Assembly: GCF_055900595.2 (NCBI RefSeq)
Contig: NZ_CM148325.1
Direction: 5' to 3' (one strand)
Length of the DNA stretch: 64,000 nucleotides
The notes beneath the pieces were generated by a model that saw only the letters and a program-made list of their open reading frames with translations, ran no database searches and had not been told where the DNA came from. Each line of letters begins with the position of its first letter. The first letter of the stretch is position 1. Shown one piece after another: positions 22,307 to 36,208 of the stretch. Made by a program: the position numbers and the translations under genes.

Positions 22307-22633
22307 TCAGGGACGTGATGGCGTAAAGATAAATTGTCTCTTCACTCCCTGACGGGGACTATTCTTTTCAAATCTCCATTTCGCCATGGCCTTCACCACT
22401 TCATCACGAAACAAATTATGAGGCTCTGAGCGGAGAAAAACGATCCGTGTCACAGTCCCGTCAGCACCAATATCGAACTTAACCTCAACCAGCCCCTTGA
22501 TATAATTTGCTGCAGCATATTCCGGATATCGTGGATACACCGTCACTAATTGCCGGGGCTCATCAGCTTTTTGCTGCGAGCATCCCACTGCCAGGGCAGA
22601 TAACAGAAAAAGTAGTGAAAGGCGTCTTTTCAT
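22307..22633 (-). CDS. lipoprotein with TonB C-terminal-like domain
   Basis: Start MKRRLSLLFLLSALAVGCSQ (lipobox AVGC) with AGGA RBS; body YPEYAAANYIKGLVEVKFDIGADGTVTRIVFLRSEPHNLFRDEVVKAMAKWRFE aligns with host TonB C-terminus in this same window ([54 protein letters not shown]). Confidence 0.7.
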   Translation of the reverse strand: MKRRLSLLFLLSALAVGCSQQKADEPRQLVTVYPRYPEYAAANYIKGLVEVKFDIGADGTVTRIVFLRSEPHNLFRDEVVKAMAKWRFEKNSPRQGVKRQFIFTPSRP

Positions 22634-23265
22634 TTTTATTCCTACGGGTCTTATTCTGACAATATATCCTGTGTTCCAGACTGCCATATCACCACATCCT
22701 GTGCCATTATCTGACTCACATTACATACATCGCATCAGGATACAGTAGTAGCACTTTCTGTAATACAGCTTCCGGTTTCTTCCACCATCGCACCGGACTG
22801 GCGAGCATGAGGGACAAACCCGCGAACCATAAACGCGGTAAAAACCCGGTGTGCATCGTTTTTGATTATTCCCGCACACTCGCGCAGAAGGAGTTCCCCG
22901 TCGGGCTACGGTCATGGTTAATGCGGGAATACAGCGACGATACAGCGCATGATGTGTCAGGCTTGAATACCTTTATCCGTTAAAAGGGATATCAGTTAAG
23001 TTATCCCGTGTAGGGTATAAGCCATTATCAAAGCCACTCTGTAGGGAGTGGCTTTTGTAATGGCAATAAAAAAGCCCCGCGAATGCGAGGCTAAATCCAG
23101 GTATTTTTAATGACTGGCTCTTATCTCAACGCAGCCCCTTACCGCGCGCCAGATGCTCAATATCAAGCATCAGCAATGAGATGTTTAATCTGGATTCACT
23201 CCAGAAGTGATCACCACCCTGTCTACAGAGCCAGATGTGAAGGATGATGAGTAAAATTATCGCTA

Positions 23266-23748
23266 TCATCGAAGGCATTGCGTCCTGATGTATTCCTGAA
23301 GCGTTCTCAGTGCTGTCTGGTCGCGGATAATTCCGTCCCGGATACCGAGAACGTTTCGTCCAGCAACTGGAGAGAGTTCGACGGTGGCATCATTGCCCAT
23401 GCCGGAGGCGCTGGAGGTTTCGGCTGAGGATGGCACAGGGCATTTTCCTTTGACGAGCACCCTGCCACCATTATCAAGCTTGCGCCGAAGAGCATCATTT
23501 TCAGCTTTCGCATCAGCTAACTCCTTCGTGTATTTTGCATCGAGCGCAGCAACATCACGCTGACGCTGCTGCATGTCAGCGATGGTGGCGGTCGCCTGCT
23601 TCAGCTCACTGACTTTTTTATCACGTTGTTCTTTGTAGGCTATGGCGTTATCACGGTAATGATTGACCGCCAACGACAGGCAGACGATGATGCAGATAAC
23701 CAGAGCATAAATAATCGCGGCGACTCTGCTCACTGATCTATCCCCCAA
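23266..23748 (-). CDS. Rz: spanin inner-membrane subunit Rz
   Basis: N-terminal TM segment [28 protein letters not shown] and [24 protein letters not shown] match lambda Rz; start uncertain. Confidence 0.9.
23307..23513 (-). CDS. Rz1: spanin outer-membrane lipoprotein Rz1 (embedded in Rz, +1 frame)
   Basis: [21 protein letters not shown] lipobox and Pro-rich [13 protein letters not shown], like lambda Rz1. Confidence 0.85.
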
Positions 23749-24263
23749 CAGGCTAATGCGCTTTCCTGGTCACGACGAATAACCTGTCCATAGCAGTTAT
23801 TTGAACGGATACGGCAGTCACGCCCACCATCCTTTATCCACCAGCGAATCGCCTCGCAGGCGCCTTTTCGATCACCGGCATTAAGCCGCTTATAAAACGT
23901 CGACGGGAAACACTTACCGGGGCCAATGTTATAGGGACAGAATGACGCAATACCCGCTTTCTGTGGTTCGGTCAGAGGTACTTTAATATTGCGCTCCACC
24001 CATGCCAGTGCCTTATCACGTTCAATAGCGTTAACCTGGTCGCATTTTTCCTTCGACAGCTTCATTCCGGGAAAAACGGGTTTTCCATCCACCATCGTGG
24101 CACCCCGACAGATGGTCCAGATGCCGGACCCATCGCGGTATGCCGTTGTGTGGTTACCCTCTTTTTCGTCCAGAAACTGATCAAGTATCTGAGGAGCAGA
24201 TGCGCCAGCACCAATCAGCGCCAGAACGGCAGCCGACAGGCCGTATCTGATTTTTGCGTTCAT
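23730..24263 (-). CDS. R: SAR endolysin (T4-lysozyme-like, GH24)
   Basis: N-terminal weakly hydrophobic Gly/Ala-rich segment [16 protein letters not shown]; catalytic E..D..T spacing ([24 protein letters not shown]). Confidence 0.85.
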
Positions 24264-24386
24264 GTATATTTATCAGGATCTAAAGGTTTATAACCCTGGA
24301 TATATCAGGTATATAATCCAGTACCAGCATGTCTCATAAACATACCCGTTCAGGAAAACCAAACGACAACAGATGAGGCTTCAGAA

Positions 24387-24764
24387 ATGAACAGTAAAGA
24401 AAATTTGCGCAGTAGATTTTTGCAACTAATGACAGAAAAAGTTAAATCAGCGCTACTTCCACTTATGGTGGATAATAACGAAGCAACGAGCAGCATCCTT
24501 GCAGACCCTTACGGTAAACTCTCGCATAAAACGCTGGATATTATTATGAGTGCATTAACACCCCGTATGCTTCAACACCTGAAACAAGATATTAACGCAT
24601 GGGTGAATGAAGAATTGAGCCCCCCCTGTTCATGGGACAGACATTATGCATGGCAGCAAAAAATGAGGATTTTCAATTCATTATCACTAAAGTTCAGAGA
24701 ACCGAAACAGCGTCCCTTCCCTCTGGAATCAGACAAAAAACAACCTGATCCCACAGGCCCGTAA
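24387..24764 (+). CDS. hypothetical protein inserted between holin and endolysin on the opposite strand
   Basis: 125-aa ORF; position analogous to ydfR between essQ and rrrQ in the K-12 Qin prophage (sequence similarity not verified). Confidence 0.5.
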   Translation: MNSKENLRSRFLQLMTEKVKSALLPLMVDNNEATSSILADPYGKLSHKTLDIIMSALTPRMLQHLKQDINAWVNEELSPPCSWDRHYAWQQKMRIFNSLSLKFREPKQRPFPLESDKKQPDPTGP

Positions 24765-24920
24765 TATTTTGAATACCGTGATTATTGATATCACAATGAA
24801 AGCTATTCCGCACAGTTATGCCCTGCTCCCCACGGGGCATGCCTCATGAAACGTTCCGGGCGTTTCATGTTCCCGGATTTTGTTAAAAGGTATATTATCC
24901 CCTCACTCCCGGGATATTCG

Positions 24921-25193
24921 TCATATTTCTTTTGGTGCCTTTTTCGCAATCTCAGCCACAGCATGTGCCGTAGCCGGAACATTACCGGCATTAGTTCGTT
25001 CCAGAATTTCGAGCAATATGCGGGTTCGTTTTTCCTGCTCCCGTTTGTTAAGGCGATAAGTAAGAACGCCAAGAATGATACTGAACGCCACGCCGATAAT
25101 AAATCCCCAATCCTGCAGTGACAGGCTGGCAAAGAACGCAACAAGTCCTGCGCTGCCGTATGCAGCGTTACTGTATCGTTCGTCCATTCTCAT
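24921..25193 (-). CDS. S: class II holin (phage-21 S-like pinholin) with dual-start motif
   Basis: Starts MRMDERY (Met1-Arg-Met3); two TM segments (GLVAFFASL / GFIIGVAFSIILGVLTY); charged C-terminus; paired with a SAR endolysin. Confidence 0.8.
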   Translation of the reverse strand: MRMDERYSNAAYGSAGLVAFFASLSLQDWGFIIGVAFSIILGVLTYRLNKREQEKRTRILLEILERTNAGNVPATAHAVAEIAKKAPKEI

Positions 25194-25529: not shown

Positions 25530-25608
25530 TTAGTGCCGACTACCGGAATTGAAGTGGTGGCCTGATGGTTACAACTAAACTGTTCTGCCGACTGAGGTAA
25601 GTCGGCAC
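25530..25608 (-). other. tRNA-like element, degenerate (possible pseudo-tRNA)
   Basis: Starts directly after the CCA of the adjacent tRNA; ends are inverted complements (GTGCCGAC...GTCGGCAC) but no canonical T-arm or D-arm could be folded by eye. Confidence 0.3.
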
Positions 25609-25685
25609 TGGACCGCCACCGGGGACTCGAACCTCGCACACTCAACTTAAAGGGTTGACGCTCTTTCCTGATGAGCTAGTGGCGG
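25609..25685 (-). tRNA. tRNA, identity uncertain (anticodon loop CCUUUAA)
   Basis: Acceptor CCGCCAC/GTGGCGG, D-arm GCTC..GAGC, anticodon stem TCAAC/GTTGA, T-loop TTCGAGT, 3' CCA encoded; position 33 is C rather than U. Confidence 0.65.
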
Positions 25686-25687
25686 TT

Positions 25688-25762
25688 GGTGGCCCTTGCT
25701 GGATTTGAACCAGCGACCTGGCGATTATGAGTCGCTCGCTCTCACCACTGAGCTAAAGGGCC
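25688..25762 (-). tRNA. ileZ: tRNA-Ile2 (CAU anticodon; ileX/ileZ-like)
   Basis: Reverse complement GGCCCTTTAGCTCAGTGGTGAGAGCGAGCGACTCATAATCGCCAGGTCGCTGGTTCAAATCCAGCAAGGGCCACCA is a near-match to E. coli ileX; T-arm GCTGG-TTCAAAT-CCAGC. Confidence 0.85.
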
Positions 25763-25952: not shown

Positions 25953-25989
25953 TTGCATGAAATATATGCCTTTCAATCTACTTTTGCAA
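25953..25989 (-). promoter_or_regulatory. late promoter pR'-like (sigma70)
   Basis: Minus strand TTGCAA (-35; 25984-25989), 17-bp spacer, TATATT (-10; 25961-25966), just downstream of Q. Confidence 0.6.
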
Positions 25990-26668
25990 CACTTTGCTTT
26001 GAAAATGCCGCCTTTTGTTTTGAACGTGTTCTCATTACAAACAATAAAGCCTCACTATCCAGTCGTTGAAAAATGTGTTTCATTGCAACCCAGTGACGAG
26101 TAAATGTTTTGGACCAGTTTTTAGTTGTCACTCCCGCCAGTAATGCCAGCTCCTGGTATTCATAACCTTCCCCACCAAAAAGTTCTGCTTTTACTGCCTG
26201 CGCCGCCAGCCAGATTAATTTTTTCAGGCGTTCCTGCGTTTTCCCTGCAATTTTTCTGGTACCTGATTGAGTATTAAATTCATTCCACGCCCACTGTGTT
26301 ATCGCGATCTGATATTCCCAACAAATACTCCCGCTGTAACTCCACAACAACCAGGCTTTATGATGTTCTTCAAGAGACAGAACAGCCCGCCGCCACGATG
26401 ATGTCGAAAACTCAACCGGGCTGACCAGGGCAATTGATGAGCCTTTCGCCAGTGATTGTTTTCCCGGGATTGGTGGATTATCCCGCGTAATCATTTTTCC
26501 GGTCACTTCATCTCGGTACCGGATTTTTTTACGCCTGTAACGCCCTGTATCGAACATGGCATTCTCCTGCCAGGCTTCAAGCTGACCTTTTGTTGCCCCA
26601 CTCAAATCAGCGGTGGCGATAATGAGCTCCTCACGCACAAACTGTAAATACTGGTTATTCATGCGCAC
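25973..26668 (-). CDS. Q: late antiterminator Q-like protein
   Basis: 231-aa ORF immediately upstream of pR'/tR' and downstream of rusA; canonical Q position. Confidence 0.7.
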   Translation of the reverse strand: MRMNNQYLQFVREELIIATADLSGATKGQLEAWQENAMFDTGRYRRKKIRYRDEVTGKMITRDNPPIPGKQSLAKGSSIALVSPVEFSTSSWRRAVLSLEEHHKAWLLWSYSGSICWEYQIAITQWAWNEFNTQSGTRKIAGKTQERLKKLIWLAAQAVKAELFGGEGYEYQELALLAGVTTKNWSKTFTRHWVAMKHIFQRLDSEALLFVMRTRSKQKAAFSKQSVAKVD

Positions 26669-28897: not shown

Positions 28898-29053
28898 TTA
28901 CTCCTCAGGTTCGTAAGCTGTGAAGACAGCGACCTCCGTCTGGCCGGTTCGGATTCGTACCTCGCAGAGGTCTTTCCTCGTTACCAGTGCCGTCACAATG
29001 ACGGTAATACAGATGACGATCAGGGCGACTAACATCGCCTTTTGCTGCTTCAT
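28898..29053 (-). CDS. hok: Hok/Gef-family type I toxin (in-frame upstream extension to 29110 is mok-like)
   Basis: MKQQKAMLVALIVICITVIVTALVTRKDLCEVRIRTGQTEVAVFTAYEPEE resembles Hok (single TM, conserved C...EVA.F.AYE); inverted repeat GGCGAGGGATTTCTCCCTCGCC in the 3' region. Confidence 0.85.
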   Translation of the reverse strand: MKQQKAMLVALIVICITVIVTALVTRKDLCEVRIRTGQTEVAVFTAYEPEE

Positions 29054-29264
29054 AGCCTGCTTCTCCTTGCCTTTCGGCACGTAAGAGGCTAACCTAGATT
29101 TGCCGTTCATAGATTGAGCCTCAGATTAATGTTAAGCGTCTTGCCGGACGCGTAATGTTAACTGGGGCTTTTCTCTATCTGCCTTTTGGGGTTCATGCCT
29201 GAGACAGATAGCCTCAAGCACCCGCTGCAATTCTACTTAACTCTCCTTTTCCCGCAAACCGTTT

Positions 29265-35420: not shown

Positions 35421-36208
35421 CAGACCCCTCAGAGGATACCACCTCGCCTGACGTGGTTAAAAGCAGGCACACAACACGAAAGCGCACGGCGAGGTAGCTG
35501 GTTCATATATAGCCTGTCGTTAAATTTTCGTCGACCGTGCGCTTCCGGTTGTGGCACTCCGCGAAATGGCGCGGCGGTAAGCATGGCGGGGTTCCCTTCC
35601 CCTTGAGGACACCGGGTTGTCAGGTTGACCATGCGCCTGAGTGACAACCCCGCTGCAACGCCCTCTGTTATCAATTTTCTGGTGACGTTTGGCGGTATCA
35701 GTTTTACTCCGTGACTGCTCTGCCGCCCTTTTTAAAGTGAATTTTGTGATGTGGTGAATGCGGCTCAGCGCACGCGGAACAGTTAAAACCAAAAACAGAG
35801 TTATGGGTGGATTCTCTGTATCCGGCGTTAATTGTTAACTGGTTAACGTCACCTGGAGGCACCTGGCACCGCATCAACAAAGTTCACTTCGGTGATGAAA
35901 GGTAAGAGAAAATGTTGAATGTAGCTATTGAAAACCAGTACGGGTGGAATTATAGTGCACCTGCACCTCATAAAACGGGTGCCGGGCGTGGAAACCCGAA
36001 AGTTACTCGAGCGCATAACCGCGCCGAAGCGGTTTTTTTATGCGTAATGCACAGCCACATTCAGATAATGGTGGGGCGTGCAGGGCAGCTGCAAGGCTGG
36101 CCGGGTTCTCGAGTGACCGGTATTTCCACCCCTGTACGTCTCGCCACCCTTATGGTCGTGGAAAGCCTCGGTGGTGAGTTAATTAACTTAACACTTGAGG
36201 ATGCCATC

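Follow-up and report, generated by a model that had tools for sequence, protein, structure and literature searches.

A mosaic lambdoid lysis cassette in an Escherichia coli prophage with an opposite-strand PHROG 1853 gene between holin and endolysin

Gene content of the lysis region

The region analysed occupies positions 23266–25193 of the window, the term used here for the whole 64,000-nucleotide stretch of contig NZ_CM148325.1 (assembly GCF_055900595.2), and is the lysis region of a prophage. All the features that the initial annotation had assigned to it were found at the coordinates given there, including the plus-strand ORF between the holin (S) and endolysin (R) genes (Table 1). Position 23266, the left edge of the region, is the end of the Rz stop codon.

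Table 1. Features of the lysis region and of the sequence upstream of it
Feature	Coordinates	Strand	Basis and remarks
Late-gene antiterminator Q	25973..26668	-	PF06323, E 7.6e-90; PHROG 304; upstream of the cassette
tRNA-Lys(TTT) and tRNA-Met/Ile(CAT)	25609..25762	-	ARAGORN; Rfam tRNA, 72.5 and 44.4 bits; between Q and holin
Class II holin, 90 aa	24921..25193	-	PHROG 1350 holin, E 3e-29
Orphan spacer, 212 bp	24709..24920		ORF-module homology stops at 24708, holin homology at 24921
Plus-strand ORF, 125 aa	24387..24764	+	PHROG 1853, E 4.8e-41
Divergent intergenic region, 123 bp	24264..24386		Alignments between lineages
SAR-type lysozyme R (predicted), 177 aa	23730..24263	-	PF00959 (Phage_lysozyme), 87.3 bits, cut-off 22.3
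Rz, inner-membrane spanin	23266..23733	-	PF03245, E 4.5e-31; PGAP coordinates in an identical genome
Rz1, outer-membrane lipoprotein spanin	23307..23513	-	PF06085, E 3.9e-21; PHROG 3198; inside Rz, other frame

The start codon of Rz is probably a GTG overlapping the 3′ end of R, and the longest Rz ORF reaches 23748. Rz has an N-terminal transmembrane domain (TMD; maximum KD 3.12), and Rz1, embedded in the +1 frame of Rz, carries the lipobox VAGC. Together they have the features of a two-component spanin. The pair rounds off the cassette and was absent from the initial annotation.

The holin begins with MRMDERY, with Met1 at 25193 and Met3 at 25187, and a strong GGAGGTGAGGG Shine–Dalgarno sequence lies upstream of the two starts. 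The dual-start motif Met1-Arg2-Met3, as described initially, is present; the longer form would carry an extra positive charge, and an M-(K/R)-M start is kept in all the close holin homologues aligned (3–4). In silico analysis placed TMD1 at about residues 9–27 and TMD2 at about residues 29–48, separated by a 2-residue loop and followed by a highly charged 42-aa C-terminal tail. TMD1 was weakly hydrophobic and SAR-like (mean KD 0.98, 53% G/A/S/T) and TMD2 was more hydrophobic (mean KD 1.79), which is the pattern looked for in a pinholin; the S21-type holin EssQ gave 0.57 with 57% G/A/S/T for TMD1 and 1.44 for TMD2. In addition, a glycine zipper in TMD2, G34xxxS38xxxG42, lined up with G40xxxS44xxxG48 of S21-type holins, and in the alignment with these holins G34 and G42 were invariant and S38 was found in eight of the nine sequences. 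Both the glycine zipper and the N-terminal charge have roles in S21 (PMC9025707).

The holin scored below threshold against the pinholin families of Pfam (19.6 bits for PF04971, Phage_holin_2_1, cut-off 26; 22.4 bits for PF16080, cut-off 28.8) and had no match in NCBIfam, so that the term pinholin rests on features and not on family membership. BLASTP aligned only 27 residues with 933W S (E 6e-4), and identity to S21-type holins was 24–34%. The holin is related to the phage-21 pinholin, but distantly. Homologous PHROG 1350 holins of Salmonella phage UPF_BP1, Escherichia phage PhiR46_1 and Providencia phage PSTCR3 are 64–78% identical to it, are 90 aa long with an M-(K/R)-M start, and are placed after Q or the late region. 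In these phages the holin gene directly precedes an R21-like SAR lysozyme gene, the start of which is overlapped by the holin stop, whereas in the window the ORF module and an RrrQ-type lysozyme gene replace the downstream gene, the join falling exactly on the holin stop. The argument for a pinholin from such holin–endolysin pairing is weak, since SAR endolysins are also able to work with canonical holins (PMC9025707). Thus, the initial description of a phage-21-like pinholin stands as regards the class II topology and the phage-21-like features; family assignment fell short in Pfam, and the protein is most likely, or at least plausibly, pinholin-like.

The R protein shares 96% identity with K-12 RrrQ and 92% with 933W R, which the Young laboratory lists among SAR endolysins and has employed as one in experiments (PMC9239132). 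With the triad definition (E-X8-D-X5-T) and SAR criteria of that study, the catalytic triad of the lysozyme domain was read from the sequence as E35-X8-D44-X5-T50. At the N-terminus, K4 and R6 are followed by a SAR segment at about residues 7–27 (24183–24245) with a mean KD of 1.43 and 52% G/A/S/T, in keeping with an R21-like SAR domain (1.41 and 55%). The SAR-like segment proposed initially could therefore be recognized (residues 8–23), its hydropathy and composition matching those of the R21-like domain. R is predicted to be a SAR-type endolysin, its membrane tethering and release being expected from the 92% identity to 933W R.

If the cassette follows the paradigm of its family, Q-antiterminated transcription of the minus strand would proceed from the late promoter through the tRNA genes, the holin gene, the 657-bp insert and R to Rz/Rz1, and the transcript would cross the passenger ORF antisense. 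The Gly/Ala/Ser-rich TMD1 of the holin would leave the membrane and TMD2 would oligomerize through its GxxxSxxxG face into small depolarizing holes, while the Met1 form, with the extra Arg2, would serve as the antiholin. Depolarization would free the Sec-exported, membrane-tethered SAR lysozyme, resulting in murein degradation, and Rz/Rz1 would finally disrupt the outer membrane. The plus-strand ORF would not be needed in this pathway. We infer both the pinholin mechanism and SAR release by analogy.

The plus-strand gene and its lost partner

The plus-strand ORF has homologues in PHROG 1853, for which 15 close homologues were found, with 21 representatives among 1.84 billion proteins. The family-homologous part of the ORF covers 24387–24698 (104 codons). 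Compared with its homologues, third-position changes prevailed (dN/dS 0.11–0.27), and all 28 family-invariant columns were kept in the window copy. The homology and the coding-type divergence demonstrate that the ORF is a gene and not a chance ORF, and the substitution pattern indicates that the PHROG 1853 family is under purifying selection. In its AF2 model the product forms a five-helix bundle (pLDDT 78), and the protein is predicted to be soluble, with no TMD. No Pfam match was obtained at E ≤ 0.01, Foldseek of the AF2 model against the PDB gave nothing below E = 1, and the profile search against PDB sequences returned designed helical proteins only. PHROG 1853 is a small prophage-only family of soluble, all-alpha proteins of about 105 aa.

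Typical members of the family are 104–105 aa long and end in ...KFR or ..NR followed by a stop codon. In the window, TAA has become GAA (24699–24701), giving a 21-aa read-through tail (24699–24764), predicted to be disordered, and a total length of 125 aa. The ORF contains a C7 tract (24620–24626) that is C6, with a frameshift, in the sister genome of strain Ch1, and the cluster members P0002, P0004 and P0005 are frameshifted as well; homopolymer-length differences of this kind may be sequencing errors. PGAP calls the ORF a pseudogene, with the label 'incomplete' in an identical genome and 'frameshifted' in a second one. The 125-aa allele is nevertheless not confined to a single genome, as it makes up a 38-member cluster and is found in 19 genomes. 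The stop-codon loss, the PGAP call and the loss of the partner gene described below had been overlooked in the initial annotation.

The conserved placement of an opposite-strand ORF, claimed initially, was evident across loci. In 78 of 89 loci the ORF (plus strand) is divergent from an RrrQ-type 177-aa lysozyme gene (minus strand). The 5′ end of the ORF always adjoins the 5′ end of a late-strand gene, which is R in these 78 loci, the holin gene in L014, L016 and L018, and an HNH endonuclease gene in L015. The ORF travels attached to the 5′ end of RrrQ-type R genes, and the homology block covers 24202–24708 in the window. The homologue P0008 (L011–L013) was considered as an independent, non-lysis context for the ORF and was rejected, as the locus keeps a 5′ fragment of R and a decayed partner and is a degraded prophage.

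In intact modules, the ORF converges on a late-strand partner of about 185 aa that has a PHROG 1085 C-domain and is sometimes fused to DUF1327/YdfR, and the convergent pair is conserved across lineages at 30–50% identity. A partner ORF was called downstream in 35 of the 89 loci, 33 of which also show a holin or a lysozyme. AF2 modelling of the linker-joined ORF and partner from a six-row paired alignment gave a pLDDT of 55, with the partner largely unmodelled and no confident interface. None of four proteins (ORF product, partner, holin and TonB-like protein) had a defence-system match in PADLOC. A literature search on protein accessions, PHROG identifiers and opposite-orientation genes in lysis cassettes returned nothing relevant and no mention of the PHROG 1853 family.

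The partner gene is absent from the window, where only a faint remnant was found. The spacer between the ORF module and the holin gene had no match in the phage collection; the remnant consists of a collinear similarity between MKRPERFM and MKRIGRCM that is statistically weak (tblastx E 0.02, HMM E 2). The spacer is probably what is left, after heavy decay, of the 3′ part of the lost partner gene. Of 47 O157-type loci that lack the partner, 46 keep the ORF intact at 104 aa. In a census of 5426 complete E. coli genomes, the ORF was present in 673 (about 12%), O157:H7 included. A near-full-length partner was found in 80 genomes, partial matches in about 1000, and the combination seen in the window in 19. 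These counts point to partner decay being common in E. coli.

Comparison with YdfR and other known systems

The initial annotation likened the ORF to ydfR of the K-12 Qin prophage. Both genes do fill the holin–endolysin interval of lambdoid prophages. However, ydfR shares its strand with S and R (essQ and rrrQ) in K-12 Qin, where it overlaps rrrQ, and is likewise co-directional with them in 606R7 and PhiR47_1. In the Pfam profile search DUF1327 (PF07041) scored 179.9 bits for K-12 YdfR and 134–152 bits for phage YdfR proteins, and the ORF, on the opposite strand, gave no match. Furthermore, in phage Stx2-86 a homologue of the ORF and ydfR lie side by side, showing that they are different genes. 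The identification of the ORF as YdfR was thus rejected, and the analogy does not hold. Stx2-86 encodes a YdfR domain as a fusion with the protein that usually accompanies PHROG 1853 ORFs as their partner. YdfR has been reported to bind the N-terminal domain of RNase E, and possibly RNA (PMC13232886); nothing found here ties the window ORF to this activity.

Compared with the cassettes of phage 21, 933W and Qin, the window has the same gene order downstream of Q with an embedded Rz1, and a two-TMD holin with a dual start and GxxxSxxxG in TMD2; it differs in that its holin belongs to another family, PHROG 1350, and is below the Pfam thresholds. Two PHROG 1853 proteins have the same setting as the window ORF, both being encoded divergently from R: gp06 of Stx2-converting phage 86 (about 48% identity) and WP_000138558.1 of O157:H7 (about 78% protein and 84% DNA identity). 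Both are 104 aa long with a normal stop, in contrast to the 125 aa of the window ORF. The O157:H7 locus is also without an intact partner, whereas Stx2-86 keeps the partner, fused to DUF1327, and has a neighbouring holin of S21 type and not of PHROG 1350. Morons of the lambda bor type resemble the ORF in being opposite-strand genes of the late/lysis region with a base composition unlike that of their neighbours; bor differs in that it follows Rz and its product is a lipoprotein, and according to the annotation of the 933W record it is expressed in the lysogenic state.

Interpretation of the insert

The region is probably a standard lambdoid late-operon lysis cassette of an E. coli prophage, in the style of phage 21 and 933W, that was assembled as a mosaic and holds the PHROG 1853 ORF as an orphaned passenger. 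The distance between S and R is 657 bp in the window and 4 nt in 933W; given that the 933W genes lie so close together with no insert, the insert is not required for lysis, and we infer that the ORF is dispensable for it. The ORF would at most be a moron-like gene that is expressed independently and at a low level. The retention of 28 of 28 invariant residues and the intactness of the ORF in nearly all partner-less O157-type loci suggest that it may have a function of its own.

A moron with its own promoter was part of the initial proposal. An autonomous moron that is transcribed in the lysogen and brings the host or the prophage a benefit unrelated to lysis is possible, if doubtful. The composition of the insert agrees with it: GC is 38–41% compared with about 50% in the flanks, the AT skew flips to the plus strand, and the two genes that flank the insert are neighbours in 933W. 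Purifying selection acts on the family, which is found, often without its partner, in the 673 E. coli genomes mentioned above. The promoter would be at TATAAT (24312–24317), which together with GAGG (24375–24378) faces the ORF; the hexamer is conserved in the window lineage, O157 included (TACAAT in L007), and a Shine–Dalgarno sequence precedes the ORF start in most lineages. However, no sigma-70 consensus promoter was found above background upstream of the ORF in the window or in four other lineages, with at most three of six matches at −35. The R-proximal 40 bp or so of the intergenic region are conserved with R in all lineages and presumably constitute the R translation-initiation region. 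Transcription would end at a spacer hairpin (24845–24869) with an 11-bp stem, which lacks a U-tract, and a terminator scan downstream of the ORF in the same five lineages gave nothing above background. The lost stop codon, the frameshift in the sister genome and the pseudogene call also weigh against this reading, as does the lack of any functional domain, fold match or defence-system match. The lost stop codon, the frameshift and the pseudogene call, together with the frameshifted relatives, the deleted partner and the excess of partial over near-full-length partners in E. coli, would suit a pseudogene, left over without function from a two-gene module that has decayed, a reading to which we likewise give a lesser chance. 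Against it, the 104-codon core is intact with every family-invariant residue, the disordered tail need not inactivate the protein, the 125-aa allele is recurrent, and the homopolymer differences may be artefacts of sequencing.

A lysis regulator had also been raised initially. Such a role, whereby the ORF or its convergent antisense transcription would tune the expression or timing of R (or S), seems improbable. The adjoining 5′ ends seen in every lineage are compatible with it, as are the need for the late S–R transcript to cross the whole ORF antisense and a conserved hairpin in the ORF leader of divergent lineages. However, phages 21, 933W and Qin, which are models for these S and R types, lyse or are organized without the ORF, the adjoining gene varies (R, S or HNH), and the soluble product without a TMD is unlike known antiholins. 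No homology to any known lysis regulator was found in Pfam, PHROG or the profile search against PDB sequences. Nothing supports a lysis regulator. No known RNA family was found in the insert or in the leader hairpin of the divergent homologues. The spacer and the S–R antisense region did not fold significantly more stably than shuffled sequences (z −1.3 and −1.5). A toxin/immunity-like or anti-phage module formed by PHROG 1853 and the PHROG 1085 C-domain, of which the window would keep the 'immunity' half alone, has an equally slim chance. Conservation of the convergent pair is in its favour, and orphan ORFs, counted in 673 genomes, are far commoner than intact partners, counted in 80, a pattern as for orphan antitoxin or immunity genes; on the other side are the absence of a PADLOC match for either protein and of a toxin-like domain, the poor AF2 model of the linked pair, and the late-strand position of the partner, which, being sometimes fused to YdfR, is more like a late accessory protein. 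As a speculation that is unlikely to hold, PHROG 1853 and the PHROG 1085 C-domain protein might constitute an undescribed accessory module at the 5′ ends of lysis genes in enterobacterial prophages, with the ORF expressed in lysogens as an immunity or safety factor against the late partner, or acting as an antisense brake on the endolysin, and the window might hold its surviving half.

As regards lysis itself, the cassette adds little, being one more mosaic of holin, SAR endolysin and spanin types that are already known. The analysis corrects a mis-annotation that is easily made, since YdfR is not what the gene between S and R encodes in the window, and draws attention to PHROG 1853, which occurs in about one in eight complete E. 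coli genomes, including O157:H7, and in Stx phages, nearly always directly beside the endolysin gene but on the other strand, and often with a convergent partner. If the module affects the timing of lysis, the stability of the prophage or the release of Stx phages, this would be relevant to the outcome of induction in pathogenic E. coli.

Layout of the lysis genes

The late region of the window is of lambdoid type and lies on the minus strand, and DNA searches identified E. coli as the host species. The positions given in the initial annotation agreed with the window sequence. Holin and lysozyme are separated by 657 bp, in which the single substantial ORF lies on the plus strand. This insert was found at at least 99% identity in 19 of 5426 complete genomes, mostly poultry isolates, and the holin in an equal number (19/5426).

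Features of the lysis region and its surroundings (window coordinates unless a homologous locus is named)
Feature	Position	Strand	Evidence or remark
Q antiterminator	25973-26668	-	PF06323, E 7.6e-90
tRNA-Met(CAT) and tRNA-Lys(TTT)	25609-25762	-	ARAGORN
Third tRNA-like match	25534-25606	-	19.8 bits, E 0.9
Holin, 90 aa	24921-25193	-	PHROG 1350 'holin', E 3e-29
Inserted ORF, 125 aa	24387-24764	+	PHROG 1853, E 4.8e-41
Lysozyme R, 177 aa	23730-24263	-	Pfam Phage_lysozyme, 87.3 bits
Rz	23266-23733/23748	-	Pfam and PHROG matches
Rz1, embedded in Rz in other frame	23307-23513	-	Pfam and PHROG matches
50-aa ORF	23126-23278	-	Hydrophobic N-terminus; 13-nt overlap with Rz 3' end
Lipoprotein with TonB C-terminal domain	22307-22687 (probable start 22633)	-	PF03544, E 3.8e-13; lipobox AVGC
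Rfam matches	29048-29223; 35677-35728; 35963-36151	-; +; +	sok antitoxin RNA, DicF, isrK, C4 antisense RNA
Partner gene/PHROG 1085, L004	2792-3598	-
Partner gene/PHROG 1085, L007	4324-4899	-
Partner gene/PHROG 1085, L014	3838-4395	-
Two tandem STnc100 sRNA copies and HicAB pair, L014	5032-5562	-

In the tRNA region between Q and the holin (25534-25762), the tRNA with the CAT anticodon was called tRNA-Met by ARAGORN and tRNA-Ile by PGAP in a sister genome, and the weak third match is possibly a tRNA in decay; in related phages the corresponding site has three or four tRNAs. PGAP annotates the 50-aa ORF as a hypothetical protein in an identical genome. In the homologous locus L001 (NZ_CP100500.1), the holin-insert-R block is 100% identical to that of the window, and upstream of the tRNAs there is first a porin pseudogene and then a different Q, a 140-aa protein of the antiterminator Q family; otherwise different prophages therefore share the block. 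The TonB-domain lipoprotein downstream of Rz belongs to PHROG 1267, whose label 'Rz-like spanin' looks like a mis-annotation; in related phages it is named 'TonB fragment' and adjoins Bor, and it looks like a lysogenic-conversion-type passenger. The Rfam matches in the same prophage fit a lambdoid prophage carrying a P4/P1-type antisense immunity or anti-Q region.

Holin and endolysin

The holin scored below the thresholds of PF04971 (phage-21 family; 19.6 against 26 bits), which rules out membership at the curated threshold, and of PF16080 (HP1 family; 22.4 against 28.8 bits), and it had no match in NCBIfam. It contains two adjacent hydrophobic segments, the first weak and Gly/Ala/Ser-rich (mean Kyte-Doolittle 0.98, 53% Gly/Ala/Ser/Thr) and the second stronger (1.79); the corresponding values for K-12 EssQ are 0.57 (57%) and 1.44. 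In an alignment with S21-type holins, its G34xxxS38xxxG42 occupies the same columns as their G40xxxS44xxxG48, with G34 and G42 invariant; PMC9025707 cites an involvement of this glycine-zipper motif in pinhole formation. The dual-start motif Met1-Arg2-Met3 described initially is indeed present and is kept as M-(K/R)-M in each of the three close homologues (64-78% identity), from Salmonella phage UPF_BP1, Escherichia phage PhiR46_1 and Providencia phage PSTCR3, in which the holin gene follows the late regulatory region and its stop overlaps the start of an R21-like SAR lysozyme gene. Given phage-21-type features but sub-threshold Pfam scores, the holin is called class II and probably pinholin-like; the original pinholin claim is plausible on these features.

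R far exceeded the Phage_lysozyme cut-off (22.3 bits), and the catalytic triad E35-X8-D44-X5-T50 could be read from its sequence. At its N-terminus, K4 and R6 precede 21 residues with a mean Kyte-Doolittle value of 1.43 and 52% Gly/Ala/Ser/Thr, and an R21-like SAR domain analysed identically gave 1.41 and 55%; the SAR criteria are basic residues followed by a weakly hydrophobic TMD (PMC9239132). R shares 96% identity with RrrQ of K-12 Qin and 92% with R of phage 933W; the latter is among the SAR endolysins listed and used by the Young laboratory (PMC9239132). Owing to this near-identity, the earlier proposal of a SAR endolysin is well supported at the sequence level.

The inserted ORF and its convergent partner

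The likening of the ORF to ydfR was not borne out. K-12 ydfR is co-directional with essQ and rrrQ and overlaps rrrQ, an arrangement also found in phages vB_EcoM-606R7 and PhiR47_1, whereas the ORF lies on the opposite strand. When the suggested comparison with DUF1327/YdfR was run by Pfam profile, YdfR proteins scored 134-180 bits, whereas the ORF matched nothing in Pfam, DUF1327 included. Between S and R of Stx2-converting phage 86, gp05 (YdfR domain) adjoins gp06, an opposite-strand homologue of the ORF; because the two co-occur, they are different genes, and identity of the ORF with YdfR was rejected.

PHROG 1853 is annotated as of unknown function and is tiny, with 15 homologues in a search of 5.8 billion proteins and 21 in a profile search of 1.84 billion cluster representatives; the usual length is 104-105 aa. 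Synonymous sites were saturated between the ORF and the Stx2-phage copies (about 48% identity; dN/dS about 0.11), the two Stx2 copies gave a dN/dS of 0.27 against each other, and changes within the family were mostly at third positions. The ORF thus has homologues, whose absence would have counted against the initial annotation, and these comparisons indicate that the family is genuinely coding. A Shine-Dalgarno sequence precedes the start in most lineages. The AlphaFold2 model is a five-helix bundle (residues 3-103, mean pLDDT 78), and no hydrophobic segment was found. Comparisons with folds, PDB sequences, NCBIfam and PADLOC gave no functional clue, and the literature searched did not mention the PHROG 1853 accessions; the family is already catalogued, as a hypothetical protein. 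Divergent homologues in L004 (about 2385-2412), L005, L014 and L015 (1338-1361) have in common a conserved leader element, CTCAGCCCGCCAGTG-loop-CACTGGCGTTT, which lies about 70 nt before the start and consists of an 8-bp stem with a T-run after it. It is absent from the window lineage and had no match in Rfam; after a C-to-T change in one lineage, pairing is preserved, as U-G, on the plus strand alone.

Synteny was analysed in 89 loci (80 from IMG/VR plus earlier-fetched loci) annotated with home-made HMMs. The order Rz(-) R(-) ORF(+) then holin(-) was found in 78, upholding the suggested conserved placement within the lysis cassette, divergent from R. The 11 exceptions are L014 and ten loci without this upstream context: seven whose sequence stops short of it, L015 and L016, where its place is taken by an HNH or holin gene, and L011, a decayed remnant. 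The ORF is upstream of the holin in L014, L015, L016 and L018. A late-strand partner gene convergent with the ORF was detected in 35 of the 89 loci, 33 of them also showing holin or lysozyme. The partner, 154-385 aa by ORF call, lies a few bases from the ORF stop or overlaps the ORF; it is the C-terminal domain of PHROG 1085, has no match in Pfam, and is fused to an N-terminal DUF1327/YdfR domain in gp05 of Stx2-86. Since ORF placement and convergent partner both recur across loci, the conserved unit, judged by synteny, is a convergent two-gene module joined to the lysis-gene 5' end.

PHROG 1085 itself is a fusion family of N-terminal DUF1327/YdfR and an uncharacterised C-domain of about 185 aa, which has an invariant GRCM..LQ..AEIE motif and is also found alone. 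A recent study reports binding of K-12 YdfR to the catalytic half of RNase E and, possibly, to RNA (PMC13232886). In the divergent prophage L014, the interval from Q to the module contains the STnc100 copies and a HicAB toxin-antitoxin pair. The ORF is carried by 673 of the 5426 E. coli complete genomes; no more than 80 have a near-full-length partner, and about 1000 have partial remnants of it. The common O157:H7 layout combines an S21-type holin, an intact 104-aa ORF and RrrQ-type R; of the partner, no more than a decayed remnant persists in the ORF-holin interval.

State of the window copy and readings of the cassette

Homology to the module (compared with L007) runs from 24202 to 24708 and takes in the opening 62 nt of R, the R-ORF intergenic region, the ORF itself and 10 nt past the family stop, and homology to PHROG 1350 holin phages stops precisely at the holin stop, 24921. 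The 212-bp spacer 24709-24920 had no match in the phage collection; the sole signal in it is a weak, collinear resemblance to the best-conserved motif of the partner (MKRPERFM against MKRIGRCM; tblastx E 0.02, HMM E 2), suggesting a strongly decayed partner remnant. The best hairpin downstream of the ORF, at 24845-24869 within this spacer, is near-perfect (CATGAAACGTT-CCG-GGCGTTTCATG) and has no U-tract; its right arm is the counterpart of the lost partner's ATGAAACGC (MKR) codons.

Several non-exclusive alternatives to a standard mosaic cassette with an orphaned passenger gene were weighed. The ORF could be a plain pseudogene: the family stop is mutated from TAA to GAA (24699-24701), adding 21 residues that are disordered in the AlphaFold model, and in sister genomes PGAP records the locus as a pseudogene, either incomplete or frameshifted. 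The locus in strain Ch1 (complete genome, NZ_CP127316.1) differs solely by having C6 in place of the ORF's C7 tract (24620-24626), which causes a frameshift, and two related protein clusters (P0004, P0005) are frameshifted at this position; slipped-strand variation or sequencing error could explain the difference. However, the ORF keeps 28 of 28 family-invariant residues and its 125-aa allele recurs in a 38-member cluster and in 19 genomes, both of which count against decay, and we regard this reading as rather doubtful. Similarly tentative is an autonomous moron. The insert has 38-41% GC against about 50% in the flanks and its AT skew turns to the plus strand, a moron-like composition, and a perfect TATAAT at 24312-24317, with a poor -35, is kept in L011 and O157 (TACAAT in L007). 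A search of the region preceding the ORF, in the window and four other lineages, gave no sigma-70 consensus promoter, and about 40 bp beside the R start, conserved with R in all lineages, is presumably R's own translation-initiation region. Because composition and TATAAT favour it, but a consensus promoter and a U-tract at the hairpin are missing, independent expression is plausible but unproven.

Q-modified RNA polymerase would read from the late promoter through the tRNAs, holin, ORF in antisense, R and Rz/Rz1. Triggering would come from the Met3 holin, with TMD1 leaving the bilayer and TMD2 oligomerising, and the Met1 holin with its extra Arg2 would delay it; depolarisation would free the SAR lysozyme and the spanins would complete lysis. 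This pathway does not require the ORF, since a mere 4 nt separate S from R in 933W (657 bp in the window) and the ORF is missing from K-12 Qin, whose R is of the same type. That it is a lysis regulator, as the initial annotation had offered besides a moron, appears improbable, and equally improbable is that it is the remaining half of a toxin/immunity-like module that has lost its convergent partner. A mosaic of a standard cassette with an orphaned passenger gene is the reading that we consider reasonably probable. The cassette combines known parts in a new way, joining a PHROG 1350 holin with an RrrQ/933W-type SAR lysozyme; this pairing occurs in 19 of 5426 E. coli genomes and in one of 80 IMG/VR loci. 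At the family level, it is mildly new that the ORF consistently adjoins the endolysin gene on the opposite strand, that it has a convergent partner, and that this small gene often outlives the decay of that partner.
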